Shown piece by piece: positions 17,992-23,923 of a stretch of 64,000 nt of DNA (within the stretch, counting starts at the first letter, position 1; every line of letters starts with the position of its first letter). The notes under the pieces were generated by a model that was given only the letters and a program-made list of their open reading frames with translations, ran no database searches and was not told the origin of the DNA. The position numbers and the translations under genes were made by a program. Source of the DNA: an uncultured Flavobacteriales bacterium. Lineage in GTDB: Bacteria > Bacteroidota > Bacteroidia > Flavobacteriales > BACL11. The stretch spans positions 457,200 to 521,199 of the forward strand of contig CALSQD010000001.1 in assembly GCA_943788405.1 (NCBI GenBank). Direction: 5' to 3'.

Positions 17992-18891
17992 ATGAAAAAA
18001 ATATTACTATCCCTGAGTGTGCTTTTTGCAATGAATTTATATGCACAAGATTGTTCAGAATTATTCTTCTCGGAATATGTAGAAGGCTGGAGCCAGAATA
18101 AAGCGATTGAGGTATACAATCCAACAAACGCGACTATTGATTTAAGTGCTTACCAAATTGAAAGATACTCTAATGGAGCTACAAATAGTTCGGCTGGTGG
18201 AGTAACAAATTTAACAGGAATGTTGGCTTCTGGTGATGCGTTTGTACTAACTAATGGAGAGACTGACACTTCAAGTACTTTTGGTTATTGTGATCCCATA
18301 CTTTTAAGTTTAGGAGATATGTCAGAACCTAATGGTTCTTATCCTACTCCTATGCATATGAATGGTAATGATGCTATAGTACTTTCTAAAGGAACAACAA
18401 TTATTGATGTAATAGGAAAAGTTGGAGAAGACCCTGCTTCTGGCGCATGGACGGATGATGCTGCTTCAGGGTTTACTATGGGTACATGGTGGACAGCACA
18501 ACATACTCTAATTAGAAAAGCAAGTGTAAAAGGTGGTGATGGTAACGGATTAGATTTATTTAATCCTAGTTTGGAATGGGATTCATTACCTGCTGGAAGT
18601 TGGACTAATTTAGGAATGCATAATTGTGATTGTATAGGAGCTTCAGCAATTAATGATGCTAAAGATATTTCTTATATTGTGTATCCTAATCCAGCAAATA
18701 GTGGGGAGGTAATTACTATTAATGCTGCAGCAACTATTGCAACTATTGAAGTGATTAATATCTTAGGGAAAAAAGTACTAACACAAACATCAAATAAAAT
18801 TAATACATCTGCTTTAGCAAAAGGAACTTATATTACTAGAATTAATTTTACAGATGGTAGAATGGTAGAAAATAAAATTATTATTGAGTAA
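17992..18891 (+). CDS. Secreted lamin-tail-domain (LTD) protein with T9SS C-terminal sorting domain
   Basis: Signal peptide. LTD-like LFFSEYVEGWSQNKAIEVYNPT ... GNDAIVL. C-terminal YPNPANSGEVITIN ... GTYITRINFTDG, typical of a T9SS CTD. Confidence 0.75.
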   Translation: MKKILLSLSVLFAMNLYAQDCSELFFSEYVEGWSQNKAIEVYNPTNATIDLSAYQIERYSNGATNSSAGGVTNLTGMLASGDAFVLTNGETDTSSTFGYCDPILLSLGDMSEPNGSYPTPMHMNGNDAIVLSKGTTIIDVIGKVGEDPASGAWTDDAASGFTMGTWWTAQHTLIRKASVKGGDGNGLDLFNPSLEWDSLPAGSWTNLGMHNCDCIGASAINDAKDISYIVYPNPANSGEVITINAAATIATIEVINILGKKVLTQTSNKINTSALAKGTYITRINFTDGRMVENKIIIE

Positions 18892-18912
18892 TTAAAAAGA
18901 TAAACTAATTGA

Positions 18913-18941
18913 AATGCTGATGGAAACATCAGCATTTTTTT
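18913..18941 (+). terminator. Rho-independent terminator after the LTD gene
   Basis: 10-bp stem aatgctgatg / catcagcatt, loop gaaa, followed by a T-run. Confidence 0.75.
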
Positions 18942-18953
18942 ACGCATATCAAT

Positions 18954-21626: not shown

Positions 21627-21691
21627 TAAAGGAGATGGTTATTTGTTGATGTGATTATTTGTTTATTTTAGAGTACAAGCAATAATTAAAT

Positions 21692-21728
21692 ATCAACTAA
21701 ACCAATAATCAGTTAAACGAATAAACAA
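21692..21728 (+). repeat. 37-nt conserved core of an intercistronic structured element (copy 2, upstream of the PLD gene)
   Basis: atcaactaaaccaataatcagttaaacgaataaacaa. 36/37 identical to the reverse complement of 15072..15108, and in the same orientation relative to the downstream gene. Confidence 0.9.
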
Positions 21729-21769
21729 GAAAAAAATAACAACATATAAACGAATAAACATATTTTAAA

Positions 21770-23923
21770 ATGAAAAAGAGAGTTTTATTAATGAGCGCAA
21801 TACTACTAAGTATAGTAGGATTTGCACAAACAGATATCGCAACAGCAAGAGCTCAGGGGTTAGGGTCAAGTGTAACTATTACCGGGGTAGTAACTAATGG
21901 GAGTGAGTTAGGACCTATTAGATATATAGAAGACAACACTGGAGGAATGGCTTTGTATAGCAGTTCTTTATCTGGTTTGCAAAGGGGAGATGAAGTAACG
22001 GTTTCGGGTTCATTAAAGGATTATAATGGTCTTTTAGAAATGGATCCTATAAGTTCAAATACAGTTAACTCAACAGGAAATACATTAACTCCACAAGTGT
22101 ATACTCCACTACAAATTGGGGAGGCAACTGAATCTCAATTAGTACAAATTAATAATGTAATTTTTAATAGTGGAGGATCTTTATTCACTGTTGGTACACA
22201 TGATTTTACAGCTAATGGCGAATCAGGAAAAATATATATTAAAACAGGACATTCTTTAGAAAATACACTTATCCCTATGGGAACGGTAACTTTAATTGGA
22301 ATATCATCACAACACACTTATAATTTTGGTTGTCCTCATACTTCTGGAATTTGTCCTGCAAGTGATGGGCATCAAATTTTACCTAGAGATACAGCTGATA
22401 TTATTCAATCAGGAAATATAGTGTTTACTTCTGCTGTTAATCAAACAAATATAACAACTACAAGTTATGATTTGTCTTGGAGTGTTTCAGCTAACTCAAG
22501 TACTAATTGTAATTATGGCACTACAACAGCTTTAGGTACGAGTATAAATAGTGGAGGGAATACTCAAAATCATAGTATAAGTTTAACTGGGCTTTCTCCT
22601 GCAACTTTTTATTATGTGCAATGTTATTCAATTGATGGCTTGGATACAGCCTTTTCAAATGTTGGTATTTATTCAACTGCCTCCCTTTCTTCAGGGAAAA
22701 TTCGCCCTTATTTCAATCATTCAGTTGATAATTCTTTTTCTAATGGAGTAGATGCACAAGATATAGGTTCAGGATTTGCTGATACTATTTCGGCATACAT
22801 TGCTTTGGCTCAAAATACTTTGGATATTTGTGTTTATAATGCTTCATCATCAATAATTGCAACTGCAATAAATGCTGCATATAATAATGGGGTTGCTGTT
22901 AGGTATATTGCTGATGATGATGTTACAAATATAATGTTGAGTAGTTTAAATGCAAATATTCCTGTAGTGTATAGAGATCCTGCACCTGCTGGAATTATGC
23001 ATAATAAATTCATTATTGTAGATGCAAACTCTACTAATAACTCTTGGATTTTAGGTGGTTCAACTAATTGGACAAACCCAAGTAATTTGCTTAATGATTA
23101 TAATAATATGATTTTTATACAGGATGAAGCAATTGCAAAAGCGTATACTTTAGAGTTTGAAGAAATGTGGAGTGGAGTTTTTGGAGACAATAAATTAGAT
23201 AATACGCCTCATAAATTTATGGCAGATGGGAAGTTGGTAGAAGTTTATTTCTCTCCTTCTGATCAAACAACTTCTCAAATTTTAAGAACGATTGAAGGGG
23301 TGGACAATACCTTGGAGTTTGGATTACTTTCGTTTACGCGTGATGATTTAGGACAAGCAATTATTGATAAGGATATTGAATTTGGCGTTACAGCAAGAGG
23401 AATTATTGAAATGAAAAATTCTAGTAATGGAGGAGAGTATGATAATTTAGTAGCTGCTAGTGTTAATGTTCGTTCACATGAGGGAGTTGCACATCAGTTG
23501 CACCATAAATATTTAATTACTGATGCAAGTGCCACAAGTTCTGACCCTATAGTTTTAACAGGCTCACATAATTGGAGTAATAATGCAGAAAATAACTCTG
23601 ATGAAAATACGCTTATTATTCATGATGCTACAATTGCAAATATCTATTTACAAGAATTTGAAAAAAGATGGGGAGAGCTTGGGACTCCAAATGCAATTGA
23701 TGATTTGATTGATATAGAGTTAACTGTTTTCCCTAATCCTTCAGCTGGTATAGTAAATATTAAAAGTGATTTAAAAGTGGAACAAATCAACTTGTACGCT
23801 ATTGATGGGAAATTTATTTCAGCTACAGATGAATCAACTATTAATATTGATACAAAAGGAGTTTACTTCTTAAAGATTATTACAGATAAAGGAAACTTGG
23901 TTAAGAAAATAGTAGTTGAATAA
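21770..23923 (+). CDS. Secreted phospholipase-D-family phosphodiesterase (two HKD motifs) with N-terminal OB-fold-like and Fn3-like domains and a T9SS CTD; probable extracellular nuclease
   Basis: HKD motifs HNKFIIVD...GSTNWT and HHKYLITD...GSHNWS. N-terminus VTITGVVTNG...GDEVTVSGSLKDYNGLLEM resembles the OB module of extracellular nucleases. C-terminal FPNPSAGIVNIK...GVYFLKI. Confidence 0.8.
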   Translation: MKKRVLLMSAILLSIVGFAQTDIATARAQGLGSSVTITGVVTNGSELGPIRYIEDNTGGMALYSSSLSGLQRGDEVTVSGSLKDYNGLLEMDPISSNTVNSTGNTLTPQVYTPLQIGEATESQLVQINNVIFNSGGSLFTVGTHDFTANGESGKIYIKTGHSLENTLIPMGTVTLIGISSQHTYNFGCPHTSGICPASDGHQILPRDTADIIQSGNIVFTSAVNQTNITTTSYDLSWSVSANSSTNCNYGTTTALGTSINSGGNTQNHSISLTGLSPATFYYVQCYSIDGLDTAFSNVGIYSTASLSSGKIRPYFNHSVDNSFSNGVDAQDIGSGFADTISAYIALAQNTLDICVYNASSSIIATAINAAYNNGVAVRYIADDDVTNIMLSSLNANIPVVYRDPAPAGIMHNKFIIVDANSTNNSWILGGSTNWTNPSNLLNDYNNMIFIQDEAIAKAYTLEFEEMWSGVFGDNKLDNTPHKFMADGKLVEVYFSPSDQTTSQILRTIEGVDNTLEFGLLSFTRDDLGQAIIDKDIEFGVTARGIIEMKNSSNGGEYDNLVAASVNVRSHEGVAHQLHHKYLITDASATSSDPIVLTGSHNWSNNAENNSDENTLIIHDATIANIYLQEFEKRWGELGTPNAIDDLIDIELTVFPNPSAGIVNIKSDLKVEQINLYAIDGKFISATDESTINIDTKGVYFLKIITDKGNLVKKIVVE

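Follow-up and report, generated by a model that had tools for sequence, protein, structure and literature searches.

Three consecutive plus-strand genes, encoding a secreted lamin-tail domain (LTD) protein, a TonB-dependent transporter (TBDT) and a secreted protein with two PLD (HKD) domains, probably constitute an outer-membrane module for the capture, cleavage and import of nucleic acid (DNA, possibly RNA), as judged from their sequences. The genes lie in the window, the 64,000-nucleotide stretch of DNA that we analysed, and their open reading frames fall at exactly 17992-18891, 18954-21626 and 21770-23923, within the span given by an earlier sequence-only reading. That reading had proposed surface capture of DNA, hydrolysis by the PLD enzyme and TonB-powered import, a proposal now strengthened by conserved synteny, nuclease-like HKD domains, LTD fusions and a link to the domain DUF5689. 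Its view of this division of labour as uncharacterised does not stand, given two published relatives: ddbABCDEF, described as a DNA-utilisation locus of Bacteroides thetaiotaomicron in the main text of Sharan et al. (PNAS 2025, PMC12478041), and a gene pair of Riemerella anatipestifer (PMC8459023). The core of the module, a CarboxypepD_reg TBDT with a DUF5689 partner, is likely to be evolutionary kin of both. The general idea is thus already known, and it is the form with a PLD nuclease, T9SS export and an LTD protein that is most likely undescribed among DNA-uptake loci, as far as the main text of the Ddb report indicates.

The first gene (ORF list, Pfam) encodes a protein of 299 residues with a Sec signal peptide (residues 1-19, type-I-like cleavage AQ|D), an LTD (residues 20-143, 18049-18420; PF00932, 53.9 bits against a cut-off of 34.3) and a type-A T9SS C-terminal sorting domain (residues 230-298, 18679-18885; PF18962, 44.1 bits against a cut-off of 27; TIGR04183, 43.8 bits). 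Its earlier description as a T9SS-sorted, near-lone LTD is borne out by Pfam for both domains, but about 85 additional residues lie between them. Against the ExeM model NF033680, residues 5-156 match the part that covers its N-terminal LTD (E = 8.8e-20), at a score far under the whole-protein cut-off of that model. The role of bacterial LTDs as DNA binders was previously taken as established but is an inference drawn from domain architectures. The mature LTD part is strongly acidic (pI 4.06, 8 K+R per 210 residues), as are the DUF5689 module of the third gene (pI 4.6) and the canonical stand-alone DUF5689 proteins, or lids; such acidity in the LTD part and the DUF5689 module is unusual among DNA-binding domains and counts against nucleic-acid capture. 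Sequence inspection and a consensus scan placed a terminator-like hairpin downstream of the gene (18912-18944, plus strand), with a 12-bp stem, a GAAA loop and a following U7, whose 3' end is 10 nt short of the TBDT start codon (MFE -18.9 kcal/mol, z -6.2). Because a hairpin with z < -2, varying in sequence by clade, occupies the equivalent place in 37 of 47 orthologous LTD-TBDT spacers, we infer that the LTD gene is transcribed as a separate unit, or that its product is made in excess.

The second gene product (890 residues; ORF list, Pfam) comprises a signal peptide, a CarboxypepD_reg domain (19020-19268; CarbopepD_reg_2, 65.2 bits), a plug domain (19287-19613; Pfam Plug, 53.4 bits) and a barrel, together with a TonB-box-like NEVQVVA and a C-terminal beta-signal ...ARFSF, both identified by eye in the translation. 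Pfam barrel models gave no match to this protein itself, and its orthologue in locus L084 matches TonB_dep_Rec_b-barrel. No SusD-like gene adjoins the trio and the SusC signature TIGR04056 has no match, in agreement with the description of a TBDT lacking a SusD-like partner. The same description had called the receptor an orphan, which it is not, since DUF5689, the TBDT partner domain in two characterised systems, is carried by the next gene, usually 0-65 nt away in other species. The transporter can be aligned over its full length with DUF5689-partnered TBDTs. In a phmmer matrix, canonical members of that group (L085, L088-L090, L070), standing as architectural and contextual proxies for DdbC and RA0C_RS04915, scored 59-128 bits against PLD-type TBDTs and ~0 bits against the one control, an ordinary CarboxypepD_reg receptor of the same window. 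By these sequence comparisons the window TBDT belongs to a clade that is sister to the DUF5689-partnered TBDTs. The wider family is not DNA-specific, because a Marinimicrobia relative (31% identical) is found with ECF-sigma/FecR genes and unrelated T9SS cargo.

The third gene (ORF list, Pfam) encodes 717 residues and, like the first, carries both a Sec signal peptide and a type-A T9SS sorting domain (residues 653-716, 23726-23917; PF18962, 37.3 bits; TIGR04183, 36.7 bits), so that both products would be expected at the cell surface or released. Its N-terminus, previously described as OB-fold-like, is indeed of OB type, and its overlooked identity is that of a DUF5689 tandem-OB domain (residues 20-215, 21827-22414; PF18942, 29.6 bits against a cut-off of 28.6). 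Comparison by hhalign with canonical stand-alone DUF5689 proteins gave 99.6% (E = 3.4e-24, 173 columns), and orthologues match the Pfam family at up to E ~2e-12. The AF2 model of the module (pLDDT 88, pTM 0.85) retrieved HIN-200 dsDNA-binding tandem-OB domains and single OB folds as top Foldseek matches, the HIN similarity being weak (TM 0.35-0.43, E 2e-4 to 6e-3). Gene 3 contains one DUF5689 unit versus two in canonical lids, and its module may not be a lid, because L070 has a separate lid alongside the PLD protein. An Fn3-like beta-sandwich linker follows (approximately residues 221-300, 22430-22669; sub-threshold fn3 and Pur_ac_phosph_N matches). This part of the earlier domain assignment is weakly supported in the window protein (Pfam fn3 E = 0.047, weak Fn3 matches in the PDB, low AF2 confidence) but exceeds the Pfam cut-off of 25 in the freshwater orthologue L050 (26.7 bits), with L046 below it (23.3 bits).

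According to the main text of PMC12478041, ddbABCDEF as a whole is needed for DNA depletion and DdbA, DdbB and DdbF are nucleases in vitro; DdbD is given HIN-like structural similarity, with no direct DNA binding reported there, and is predicted to dock on DdbC. On that description the trio shares with the locus a TBDT directly followed by a gene for DUF5689, whose tandem-OB fold is HIN-like, one or more secreted enzymes that cleave phosphodiesters, and the logic of a polysaccharide-utilisation locus, namely to bind, cut outside and import. It differs in having as its putative nuclease a double-HKD PLD enzyme on one chain with the DUF5689 module, an LTD protein where ddb has DdbE, no periplasmic nuclease gene and a TBDT of the sister clade. 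Its accessory proteins carry type-I signal peptides and are T9SS cargo, those of ddb being described as SPII lipoproteins, and it belongs to a free-living marine flavobacterium whose genome is small. The terms PLD, LTD and T9SS are absent from the main text of that report.

Natural transformation in Riemerella anatipestifer requires both RA0C_RS04915 (a CarboxypepD_reg barrel) and RA0C_RS04920 (DUF5689) (Huang et al. 2021, PMC8459023). Here too a CarboxypepD_reg-type outer-membrane barrel precedes a DUF5689 protein in one operon, and both hosts are Flavobacteriales. Unlike gene 3, RA0C_RS04920 joins DUF5689 to DUF5017 ('choice-of-anchor J') and has no enzyme domain, and the pair's role is transformation. 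Loci with the architecture of the pair (L085, L088, L090) have an EEP nuclease (Exo_endo_phos_3), upstream on the opposite strand, where the trio has the PLD enzyme. The shared two-gene architecture could mean that the trio is itself a DNA-uptake port for natural transformation, with long DNA bound by DUF5689, imported via the TBDT and processed by the PLD enzyme, an explanation that we consider unlikely. The Ddb authors, in their main text, see the systems for nutrition and those for transformation as evolutionarily related. The window also contains dprA (60209-61309), a gene so nearly universal in bacteria that it proves little, and the scanned part of the 64 kb revealed neither comEC nor comF. 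The best NCBIfam match of the PLD region is NucT (NF010492, E = 7e-14, under its cut-off), a PLD-family protein proposed to process incoming DNA in Helicobacter pylori; against this, transforming DNA would be unlikely to survive at a port to which a processive double-HKD nuclease is tethered. Furthermore, the window TBDT lies outside the canonical DUF5689-partnered TBDTs, and Pfam detected no DUF5017 in the trio. In L068-L070 the genes for a canonical TBDT, a DUF5689 protein that stands alone (E = 1.5e-92) and a PLD protein are consecutive. The PLD protein thus lies beside the canonical pair, much as the EEP nuclease does in L085, L088 and L090, and this suggests that the PLD protein is an add-on degradative enzyme.

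The PLD region matches PLDc_2 in two stretches (121.5 bits, Pfam). Domain 1 (residues 338-469, 22781-23176; PLDc_2, Zucchini matches at E = 6e-9) contains HNKFIIVD (H411-x-K413-x4-D418, 23000-23023) and GGSTN; domain 2 (residues 490-637, 23237-23680; NucT, Zucchini and Nuc matches) contains HHKYLITD (H578-x-K580-x4-D585, 23501-23524) and GSHN. Both HKD motifs are therefore complete, as originally read, and they are invariant or nearly so among 54-56 homologues. The two Nuc/Zucchini-like halves form one pseudo-dimeric active site. Nuc, NucT and Zucchini (PLD6) are single-HKD homodimers, whereas gene 3 has both halves on one chain, as in PLD3/4, joins them to OB, Fn3-like and T9SS modules, and has 5-6 more residues between the motif aspartate and GSxN; the HxK(x)4D...GSxN motifs are nevertheless intact, and the halves are 21-30% identical to this clade and superposable on it (TM up to 0.78, target-normalised).

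In sequence, the HKD halves come nearest to three nucleases, Zucchini, Nuc and NucT. Within the PDB, sequence matches of the region reach significance only for Zucchini/MitoPLD and Nuc (for domain 2, mouse Zucchini 4ggj at E = 3.3e-13 and Nuc 1byr at E = 4.9e-5), with NucT non-significant there (E = 0.09), and PADLOC gave weak matches to DrmC and DpdK, defence proteins of the PLD family. The PLD superfamily also covers lipid and polyphosphate chemistry, and the trio might instead scavenge another phosphodiester or anionic polymer (phospholipid head groups, teichoic-acid-like polymers, polyphosphate), with a phospholipase or phosphodiesterase and with LTD and OB modules as generic binders. This we hold to be quite unlikely. 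The best two-domain matches in fold searches are phospholipase D 7e0m, PLD3, PLD1/2, PPK1 and PS synthase; these searches did not discriminate nucleases from phospholipases. By sequence, no phospholipase or lipid synthase was detectable for the HKD domains in the PDB or NCBIfam. PLD3, though named a phospholipase, is an ssDNA exonuclease. MitoPLD has also been called a cardiolipin hydrolase, which weighs against a nuclease reading, and the label that JGI gives to homologues, 'phosphatidylserine/.../cardiolipin synthase-like', favours the rival. The acidity of the binding modules and the VTC and DUF4956 genes near the trio in L084 would suit a non-nucleic-acid polymer, and TBDT-lipoprotein complexes for phospholipid use are reported in plant Bacteroidota, in a paper that makes no mention of PLD. 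Conversely, the proteins that the OB module matches in structure bind nucleic acids, and DUF5689 and LTD elsewhere co-occur with EEP nucleases and DNA-linked TBDTs.

The three genes travel together across orders: the LTD-TBDT-PLD order is kept in 57 of 61 informative loci (one per species, each extending 4.3 kb or more beyond the PLD gene on its upstream side), with 48 passing strict ORF criteria and nine failing these for technical reasons only. PLD identity among syntenic loci ranges from 86% down to 39%, and the carriers include MAGs labelled Flavobacteriales, Bacteroidales, Lentimicrobiaceae and Chlorobiota. In the freshwater clade the PLD protein bears an N-terminal LTD, and in Tenacibaculum singaporense and four further clusters the LTD is joined to DUF5689 lids; in L090, an 1800-residue LTD-CTD protein adjoins the canonical TBDT-DUF5689 pair. 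A generic TBDT with T9SS cargo, co-inherited in a core-genome block by pyrC, GT2 and acs and sharing no substrate, would fit the housekeeping surroundings, the uniform GC content, the GT2 and pyrC genes that accompany the trio in many genomes and the distant TBDT relative with unrelated cargo, but it is highly improbable, as order and tight spacing survive where all flanks differ (L071, L073, L080, L081, L084, freshwater clade) and the LTD-PLD, LTD-DUF5689 and DUF5689-PLD fusions link all parts functionally.

Under the preferred reading of nucleic-acid capture, cleavage and import, the LTD protein would bind the polymer at the cell surface, in a role like that of SusE/F or DdbE, and the gene 3 protein would cut the polymer to oligonucleotides beside the transporter, its DUF5689 module either docking on the TBDT, as predicted for DdbD on DdbC, or binding substrate. 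The TBDT would import the products with TonB energy, as a possible source of phosphorus, nitrogen and nucleobases for a marine flavobacterium whose genome is small (~1.95 Mb). SusCD-type polysaccharide-utilisation loci and utilisomes likewise encode a TBDT together with a hydrolase and one or more binding proteins at the cell surface; the trio differs in lacking SusD and the SusC signature, in its putative nucleic-acid substrate and in partners that are T9SS-exported, not lipoproteins. With ExeM/NucH-type nucleases (LTD, OB and EEP) it shares the combination of a secreted phosphodiesterase with an LTD, which matches the N-terminal part of the ExeM model, and with a module of OB type, but its catalytic domain is PLD, not endonuclease/exonuclease/phosphatase, its LTD is a separate polypeptide and a TBDT is coupled to it.

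The TBDT-PLD spacer holds a hairpin-forming repeat (21633-21735, plus strand; core 21692-21728), of which sequence comparison found a second copy in the GT2-pyrC spacer (15070-15170, minus strand; core 15072-15108). The copies share an exact match of 27 nt (21692-21718 plus, 15082-15108 minus; chance expectation 0) within ~100 nt of weaker similarity. The claim that the PLD gene and pyrC have a common leader thus stands as to the repeat, but not as to a conserved leader with a nucleotide-economy role. The element is a lineage-specific insertion, because it is absent from all 80 other species compared, whose spacers are short: the TBDT-PLD gap is 143 nt here versus a median of ~18 nt elsewhere, and the GT2-pyrC gap is ~6 nt in loci checked, for example L006 and L033, with L032 (~130 nt) as an exception. 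Hence it provides no evidence for a nucleotide-economy regulon. Downstream of the trio, a hairpin scan placed a bidirectional terminator (23940-23969) between gene 3 and the convergent accC.

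Open reading frames on the plus strand lie exactly where the sequence-only reading had placed three consecutive genes: gene 1 at 17992-18891 (299 aa, the LTD protein), gene 2 at 18954-21626 (890 aa, a TonB-dependent transporter, TBDT) and gene 3 at 21770-23923 (717 aa, the DUF5689/PLD protein). All three products open with type-I-like signal peptides, as judged by eye. The trio is embedded among housekeeping genes, with tyrS, pyrC, a GT2 gene and acs on one side and a run beginning accC, accB, fabH and plsX on the other. GC content is uniform across the region, and the source genome is marine and ~1.95 Mb in size.

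We then asked how widely this arrangement is kept. A scan of one genome per species placed relatives of gene 3 in at least 421 GTDB species, and the locus family comprises thousands of protein clusters at 90% identity. For synteny, the best 80 loci of these at least 421 species were used (86-39% identity to gene 3; fetched loci carry L-numbers), and their gene content was determined by searching them with the window's proteins in tblastn and then calling ORFs. The order LTD-TBDT-PLD was kept in 57 of the 61 informative loci, defined as those with at least 4.3 kb of upstream sequence; 48 of the 57 were counted by strict criteria, and the other 9 failed these merely technically, through truncated or over-extended ORFs. 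In L068-L070, another TBDT and a stand-alone DUF5689 protein precede the PLD gene, and the TBDT is absent from L075. Unrelated flanks surround the same order in the 4.45 Mb genome of L084 and in MAGs with the labels Bacteroidales, Lentimicrobiaceae, Prolixibacteraceae and Chlorobiota. The co-occurrence of the three genes, a check proposed in the sequence-only reading, is thus borne out. The GT2 (Dpm1-like) and pyrC-like amidohydrolase genes (13734-15947 in the window) are close to the trio in most marine loci, and this block is found on the opposite side, downstream of the PLD gene, in L076, L078, L079 and L083, which are of Bacteroidales/Lentimicrobiaceae type; the proximity, which holds across different orders, may be ancestral synteny or may reflect a functional link. 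A few kb upstream of the trio in L084 are VTC-domain and DUF4956 genes, both polyphosphate-associated, and a MIP channel gene (L084 1-1143).

Profile searches agreed with the sequence-only reading on the export and overall make-up of the trio. Genes 1 and 3 both carry an N-terminal signal peptide and a type-A T9SS sorting domain (Por_Secre_tail/TIGR04183) above curated cut-offs, and the signal peptides of these two partners are type-I-like (...AQ followed by D or T), without a lipobox cysteine. Gene 1 consists of an LTD (PF00932, 53.9 bits) and the sorting domain. Gene 2 has CarbopepD_reg_2 and Plug domains; it matches none of the Pfam barrel models, one of which is matched by its L084 orthologue. 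The description of gene 2 as a receptor lacking a SusD-like partner also held, since no SusD gene lies nearby and there is no SusC (TIGR04056) match; in SusC/SusD pairs, by contrast, a SusD lipoprotein is encoded beside a TIGR04056 TBDT. Gene 3 combines DUF5689 (29.6 bits, cut-off 28.6) with two PLDc_2 domains and the T9SS sorting domain; an Fn3-like stretch stays below threshold. Two features of this protein were read only in part from the sequence: its N-terminus had been called OB-like, which modelling supports as an OB-type fold (AF2/Foldseek) while the DUF5689 identity was missed, and the proposed Fn3-like module is present in the window protein as a stretch below threshold.

The above-cut-off PF18942 match, encoded directly downstream of a TBDT, is the feature that relates the trio to described systems. 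Of the proteins encoded by the six-gene locus ddbABCDEF of B. thetaiotaomicron (Ddb), three are nucleases, DdbC is a TBDT and DdbD carries DUF5689; the locus is needed for the depletion of exogenous DNA and the production of uracil and xanthine (PMC12478041). The report on it predicts that DdbD caps DdbC and describes the resemblance of DdbD to the dsDNA-binding HIN domain of p202; its main text does not mention PLD, LTD or T9SS (PMC12478041). In R. anatipestifer, RA0C_RS04915 (a CarboxypepD_reg-type barrel) and RA0C_RS04920 (DUF5689 plus DUF5017) are co-encoded, and both are essential for natural transformation (PMC8459023). Genes 2 and 3 of the window repeat the architecture common to Ddb and the Riemerella pair, a TBDT gene followed by a DUF5689 gene. 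The differences lie in the partners: those of Ddb at the surface are SPII lipoproteins, whereas those of the trio are non-lipoprotein T9SS type-A cargo, and RA0C_RS04920 has a DUF5017, a domain that a Pfam search did not detect in any of the trio proteins.

The DUF5689 assignment of gene 3 was strengthened by profile-profile alignment. Using hhalign, a profile of the N-termini of gene-3 orthologues matched 75 canonical stand-alone DUF5689 proteins at 99.6% (E 3.4e-24, 173 columns), aligning to the second DUF5689 unit of the latter. Canonical lids (the DUF5689 partners predicted to cap TBDTs) have two units, whereas gene 3 has one, fused to an enzyme. As the full-length AF2 model of gene 3 was poor (pLDDT 61), the N-terminal domain was modelled alone from a more diverse alignment, which gave pLDDT 88 and pTM 0.85 for residues 20-215. 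The best PDB matches of this model in Foldseek were the dsDNA-bound HIN-200 domains of p204, MNDA, IFI16, p202 and AIM2, followed by single OB folds (the anticodon domains of AspRS and LysRS, RPA and YgiW), all with modest scores (E 2e-4 to 6e-3, TM 0.35-0.43 over the full length). As judged from this predicted structure, the HIN-like matches independently reproduce the likeness published for DdbD. DUF5689 is not among the families covered by Price et al. in their account of TBDT lids. Orthologues of gene 3 also vary in architecture, with an additional N-terminal LTD in a 964-aa form (L050, L063 and relatives, freshwater Flavobacteriales MAGs), SprB repeats in L046 (961 aa) and a Big_9 Ig domain in L081 and L084 (840-842 aa).

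Canonical loci, in which a TBDT is paired with a stand-alone DUF5689 protein, were fetched via the latter for comparison. In L085 (Tenacibaculum singaporense), L088 and L090, genes for an EEP nuclease and a DUF5689 protein accompany that for a CarboxypepD_reg TBDT of ~920 aa; in L089, no nuclease adjoins the TBDT and the DUF5689 protein. In L085 (RSFU01000002.1), the EEP nuclease, TBDT and DUF5689x2-LTD genes adjoin those for a metallophosphoesterase, a Porin_O_P phosphate-selective porin and a PHO4 transporter, with recJ upstream, a neighbourhood that hints at phosphorus acquisition.

Next, we compared the transporters themselves in a phmmer matrix of PLD-type TBDTs (those preceding a DUF5689/PLD gene), canonical TBDTs (L085, L088-L090 and L070) and one control, a second, ordinary CarboxypepD_reg/Plug/barrel receptor of the window (57801-60164, minus strand). 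The canonical TBDTs, which adjoin canonical DUF5689 proteins, served as proxies for DdbC and RA0C_RS04915. They formed one clade (394-918 bits mutually) and the PLD-type TBDTs another (655-847 bits mutually), with reciprocal scores of 59-128 bits between the two clades and ~0 between the canonical TBDTs and the control. These scores indicate that the window TBDT is a specific but distant relative of the DUF5689-partnered TBDTs, belonging to a sister clade and not to the same clade. End to end, its identity to the canonical TBDTs is ~21%; between the Bt and Pv types of DdbC, identity is likewise low, at only ~25% (PMC12478041).

The family of gene-2 TBDTs is large (587 clusters at 50% identity, E <=1e-30), and its members go by generic names at source, such as 'iron complex outermembrane receptor' and 'TonB-dependent receptor'. 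Extending a DNA link to its distant members was rejected: a 31%-identical Marinimicrobia TBDT (P0265) sits beside ECF-sigma/FecR genes and T9SS cargo of unknown function, and no DUF5689, PLD or LTD protein occurs in its locus. Given this unrelated context, the substrate is not inferable from the transporter alone. On the Marinimicrobia-type contig L087 (JACKQG010004632.1), which encodes a distant relative of the TBDT, the gene order is ECF sigma, FecR anti-sigma, TBDT and two large T9SS-CTD proteins, and the N-terminal extension of this TBDT has a weak, sub-threshold FecR_C-like match (E 0.006), making it a transporter of the cell-surface-signalling kind with T9SS cargo at its side.

We next considered the enzymatic part of gene 3, for which two complete HKD motifs had been proposed. 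Both are intact and fit HxK(x)4D (HNKFIIVD and HHKYLITD), a GSxN motif is present, and the HKD motifs vary little or not at all across 54-56 homologues. When the PLD region was searched against PDB sequences, significant matches were confined to Zucchini/MitoPLD of mouse and fly (E 3e-13 to 1e-7) and Nuc of Salmonella (E 5e-5); the match to NucT of H. pylori was non-significant (E 0.09), and no phospholipase, cardiolipin synthase or PS synthase appeared at E <1. The best NCBIfam models for gene 3 were four NucT models (E 7e-14), all far below their cut-offs. By sequence, the closest relatives of the gene 3 PLD are thus nucleases rather than lipid enzymes. Foldseek with the poor full-length model recovered a two-lobed PLD fold, matching 7e0m, PLD3, PLD1/2, F13, PPK1 and PS synthase, with the highest identities to Zucchini and Nuc (21-30%); the fold by itself does not tell a nuclease from a lipid enzyme or settle the substrate. 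The PLD protein of L068-L070 comes directly after a canonical pair of TBDT and DUF5689 protein; the EEP nuclease of L085, L088 and L090 likewise adjoins such a pair, upstream of it and on the other strand. We infer, with good support from these homologies, that gene 3 acts as a nuclease. A role in defence, suggested by no more than weak PADLOC matches to the PLD-family proteins DrmC and DpdK, was rejected because gene 3 is T9SS-secreted and in a transport context.

In the ExeM model NF033680, only the LTD region is matched, by the N-terminal 150 residues of gene 1 (70 bits, cut-off 1300). ExeM and NucH carry an EEP domain on the same chain as the LTD, whereas Pfam and NCBIfam searches found no EEP catalytic domain in any of the three trio proteins. 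The 964-aa PLD protein of the freshwater clade has its N-terminal LTD besides a separate LTD gene, DUF5689 lids are fused to an LTD in Tenacibaculum singaporense and four other clusters, a 1800-aa LTD-CTD protein directly follows the canonical pair in L090, and LTD proteins with SprB repeats occur in L046 and L075. Such repeated, independent fusions and adjacencies tie the LTD, on the evidence of gene architecture, to the other parts of the locus. We infer DNA binding by bacterial LTDs from domain architectures, and know of no direct demonstration of it. Charge analysis does not support simple electrostatic binding of DNA (pI 4.06 for the mature LTD part, 4.6 for the DUF5689 module and 4.3-5.2 for canonical lids); with the LTD and DUF5689 this acidic, any DNA binding would need divalent cations or base stacking.

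Together, these data make it reasonably probable, in our judgement, that the trio is a module for the capture, cleavage and import of nucleic acids, a PLD/T9SS/LTD variant of the DUF5689-TBDT systems that serve nutrient use in Bacteroides and transformation in Riemerella. To our knowledge, Ddb and the Riemerella pair are the only characterised systems of this kind in Bacteroidota, both with lipoprotein partners; the fetched loci of Riemerella type have EEP-type nucleases, and the locus family described here would instead rely on export by the T9SS, on LTD modules and on a nuclease of the PLD family. In seawater and lakes, dissolved DNA makes up a large reserve of organic phosphorus and nitrogen. 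If the module is confirmed, the DUF5689-TBDT paradigm of DNA uptake would extend from the gut to the ocean, LTD and DUF5689 would gain a testable role, metagenomes could be searched for DNA foraging with a marker gene set, and gene 3 would be a natural case in which an enzyme is joined to the partner domain of a TBDT. The DUF5689 domain of gene 3 could serve as a TBDT lid or merely as a substrate-binding module of the nuclease, and DNA imported via the trio could be food or genetic material. Among comEC, comF and dprA, only dprA was seen in the part of the window scanned (60209-61309, plus strand, DNA_processg_A); this gene is required for transformation in Riemerella and is near-universal in bacteria. 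A gene for a TatD-family DNase lies in the same window as dprA (53850-54623, minus strand).

A bolder version of this scheme, which we regard as speculative and rather unlikely as a whole, merges lid and enzyme. The gene 3 protein, delivered by the T9SS, would have its C-terminus as anchor; the tandem-OB module (DUF5689) would cap the TBDT, and the double-HKD nuclease would cut DNA directly above the pore, a 'one-polypeptide utilisome' that would be helped by an LTD capture protein made in abundance. For streamlined Flavobacteriales of the sea and of fresh water, and for other FCB bacteria, it would be a main route for harvesting dissolved DNA as a source of phosphorus and nitrogen. Full-text literature searches found no account of the LTD-TBDT-PLD trio.

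The spacers of the trio contain two further elements. A terminator-like hairpin (18912-18944, plus strand; 12-bp stem, U7) reaches to within 10 nt of the start codon of the TBDT gene, and a stable hairpin with a U-run (z <-2) occupies the LTD-TBDT spacer in 37 of 47 orthologous loci (the 47 include L004, L055, L072 and L081), its position kept and its sequence differing between clades. This pattern is consistent with a conserved terminator or attenuator that may let the LTD protein be expressed separately from, or in excess over, the TBDT and PLD proteins. A scan for sigma-70 promoters was uninformative (33 sites, 35.5 expected).

The second element is the leader that the sequence-only reading had described as shared by the PLD gene and pyrC. 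A repeat of ~100 nt does exist, with one copy in the TBDT-PLD spacer (21633-21735, plus strand) and one in the GT2-pyrC spacer (15070-15170, minus strand); the copies share 27 nt exactly, a core of 36/37 and ~73% identity over ~100 nt, and each can form a long hairpin with imperfect pairing (z -2.1 and -3.1). The repeat had no matches in 80 other species and was confined to the species of the window genome (L001-L003); a sensitive blastn search with both spacers, covering all fetched loci, recovered it from the same genome alone, its 24-nt core was not found in JGI metagenomes, and Rfam returned no family for either spacer, only sub-threshold terminator-like matches. The spacers that hold it are normally tiny: the TBDT-PLD spacer is 143 nt here versus a median of ~18 nt in relatives, and the GT2-pyrC spacer 150 nt versus ~6 nt in the loci checked (L006, L033), with L032 (~130 nt) as an exception. 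Most simply, a small palindromic repeat has inserted twice, possibly as a REP-like or miniature mobile element. Because this two-fold insertion is particular to the window genome, it lends no support to a shared nucleotide-economy regulon.

Elsewhere in the window, further T9SS cargo proteins are encoded at 35919-36680 and 46536-48773 (both minus strand), one of them with a PNGase F-like domain. A small, Cys-rich predicted lipoprotein of 114 aa (13333-13677, plus strand; ...FAAC followed by GG) carries C-terminal GDDHDHA repeats that stem from a 21-nt tandem repeat (13603-13673), and may be metal-binding.
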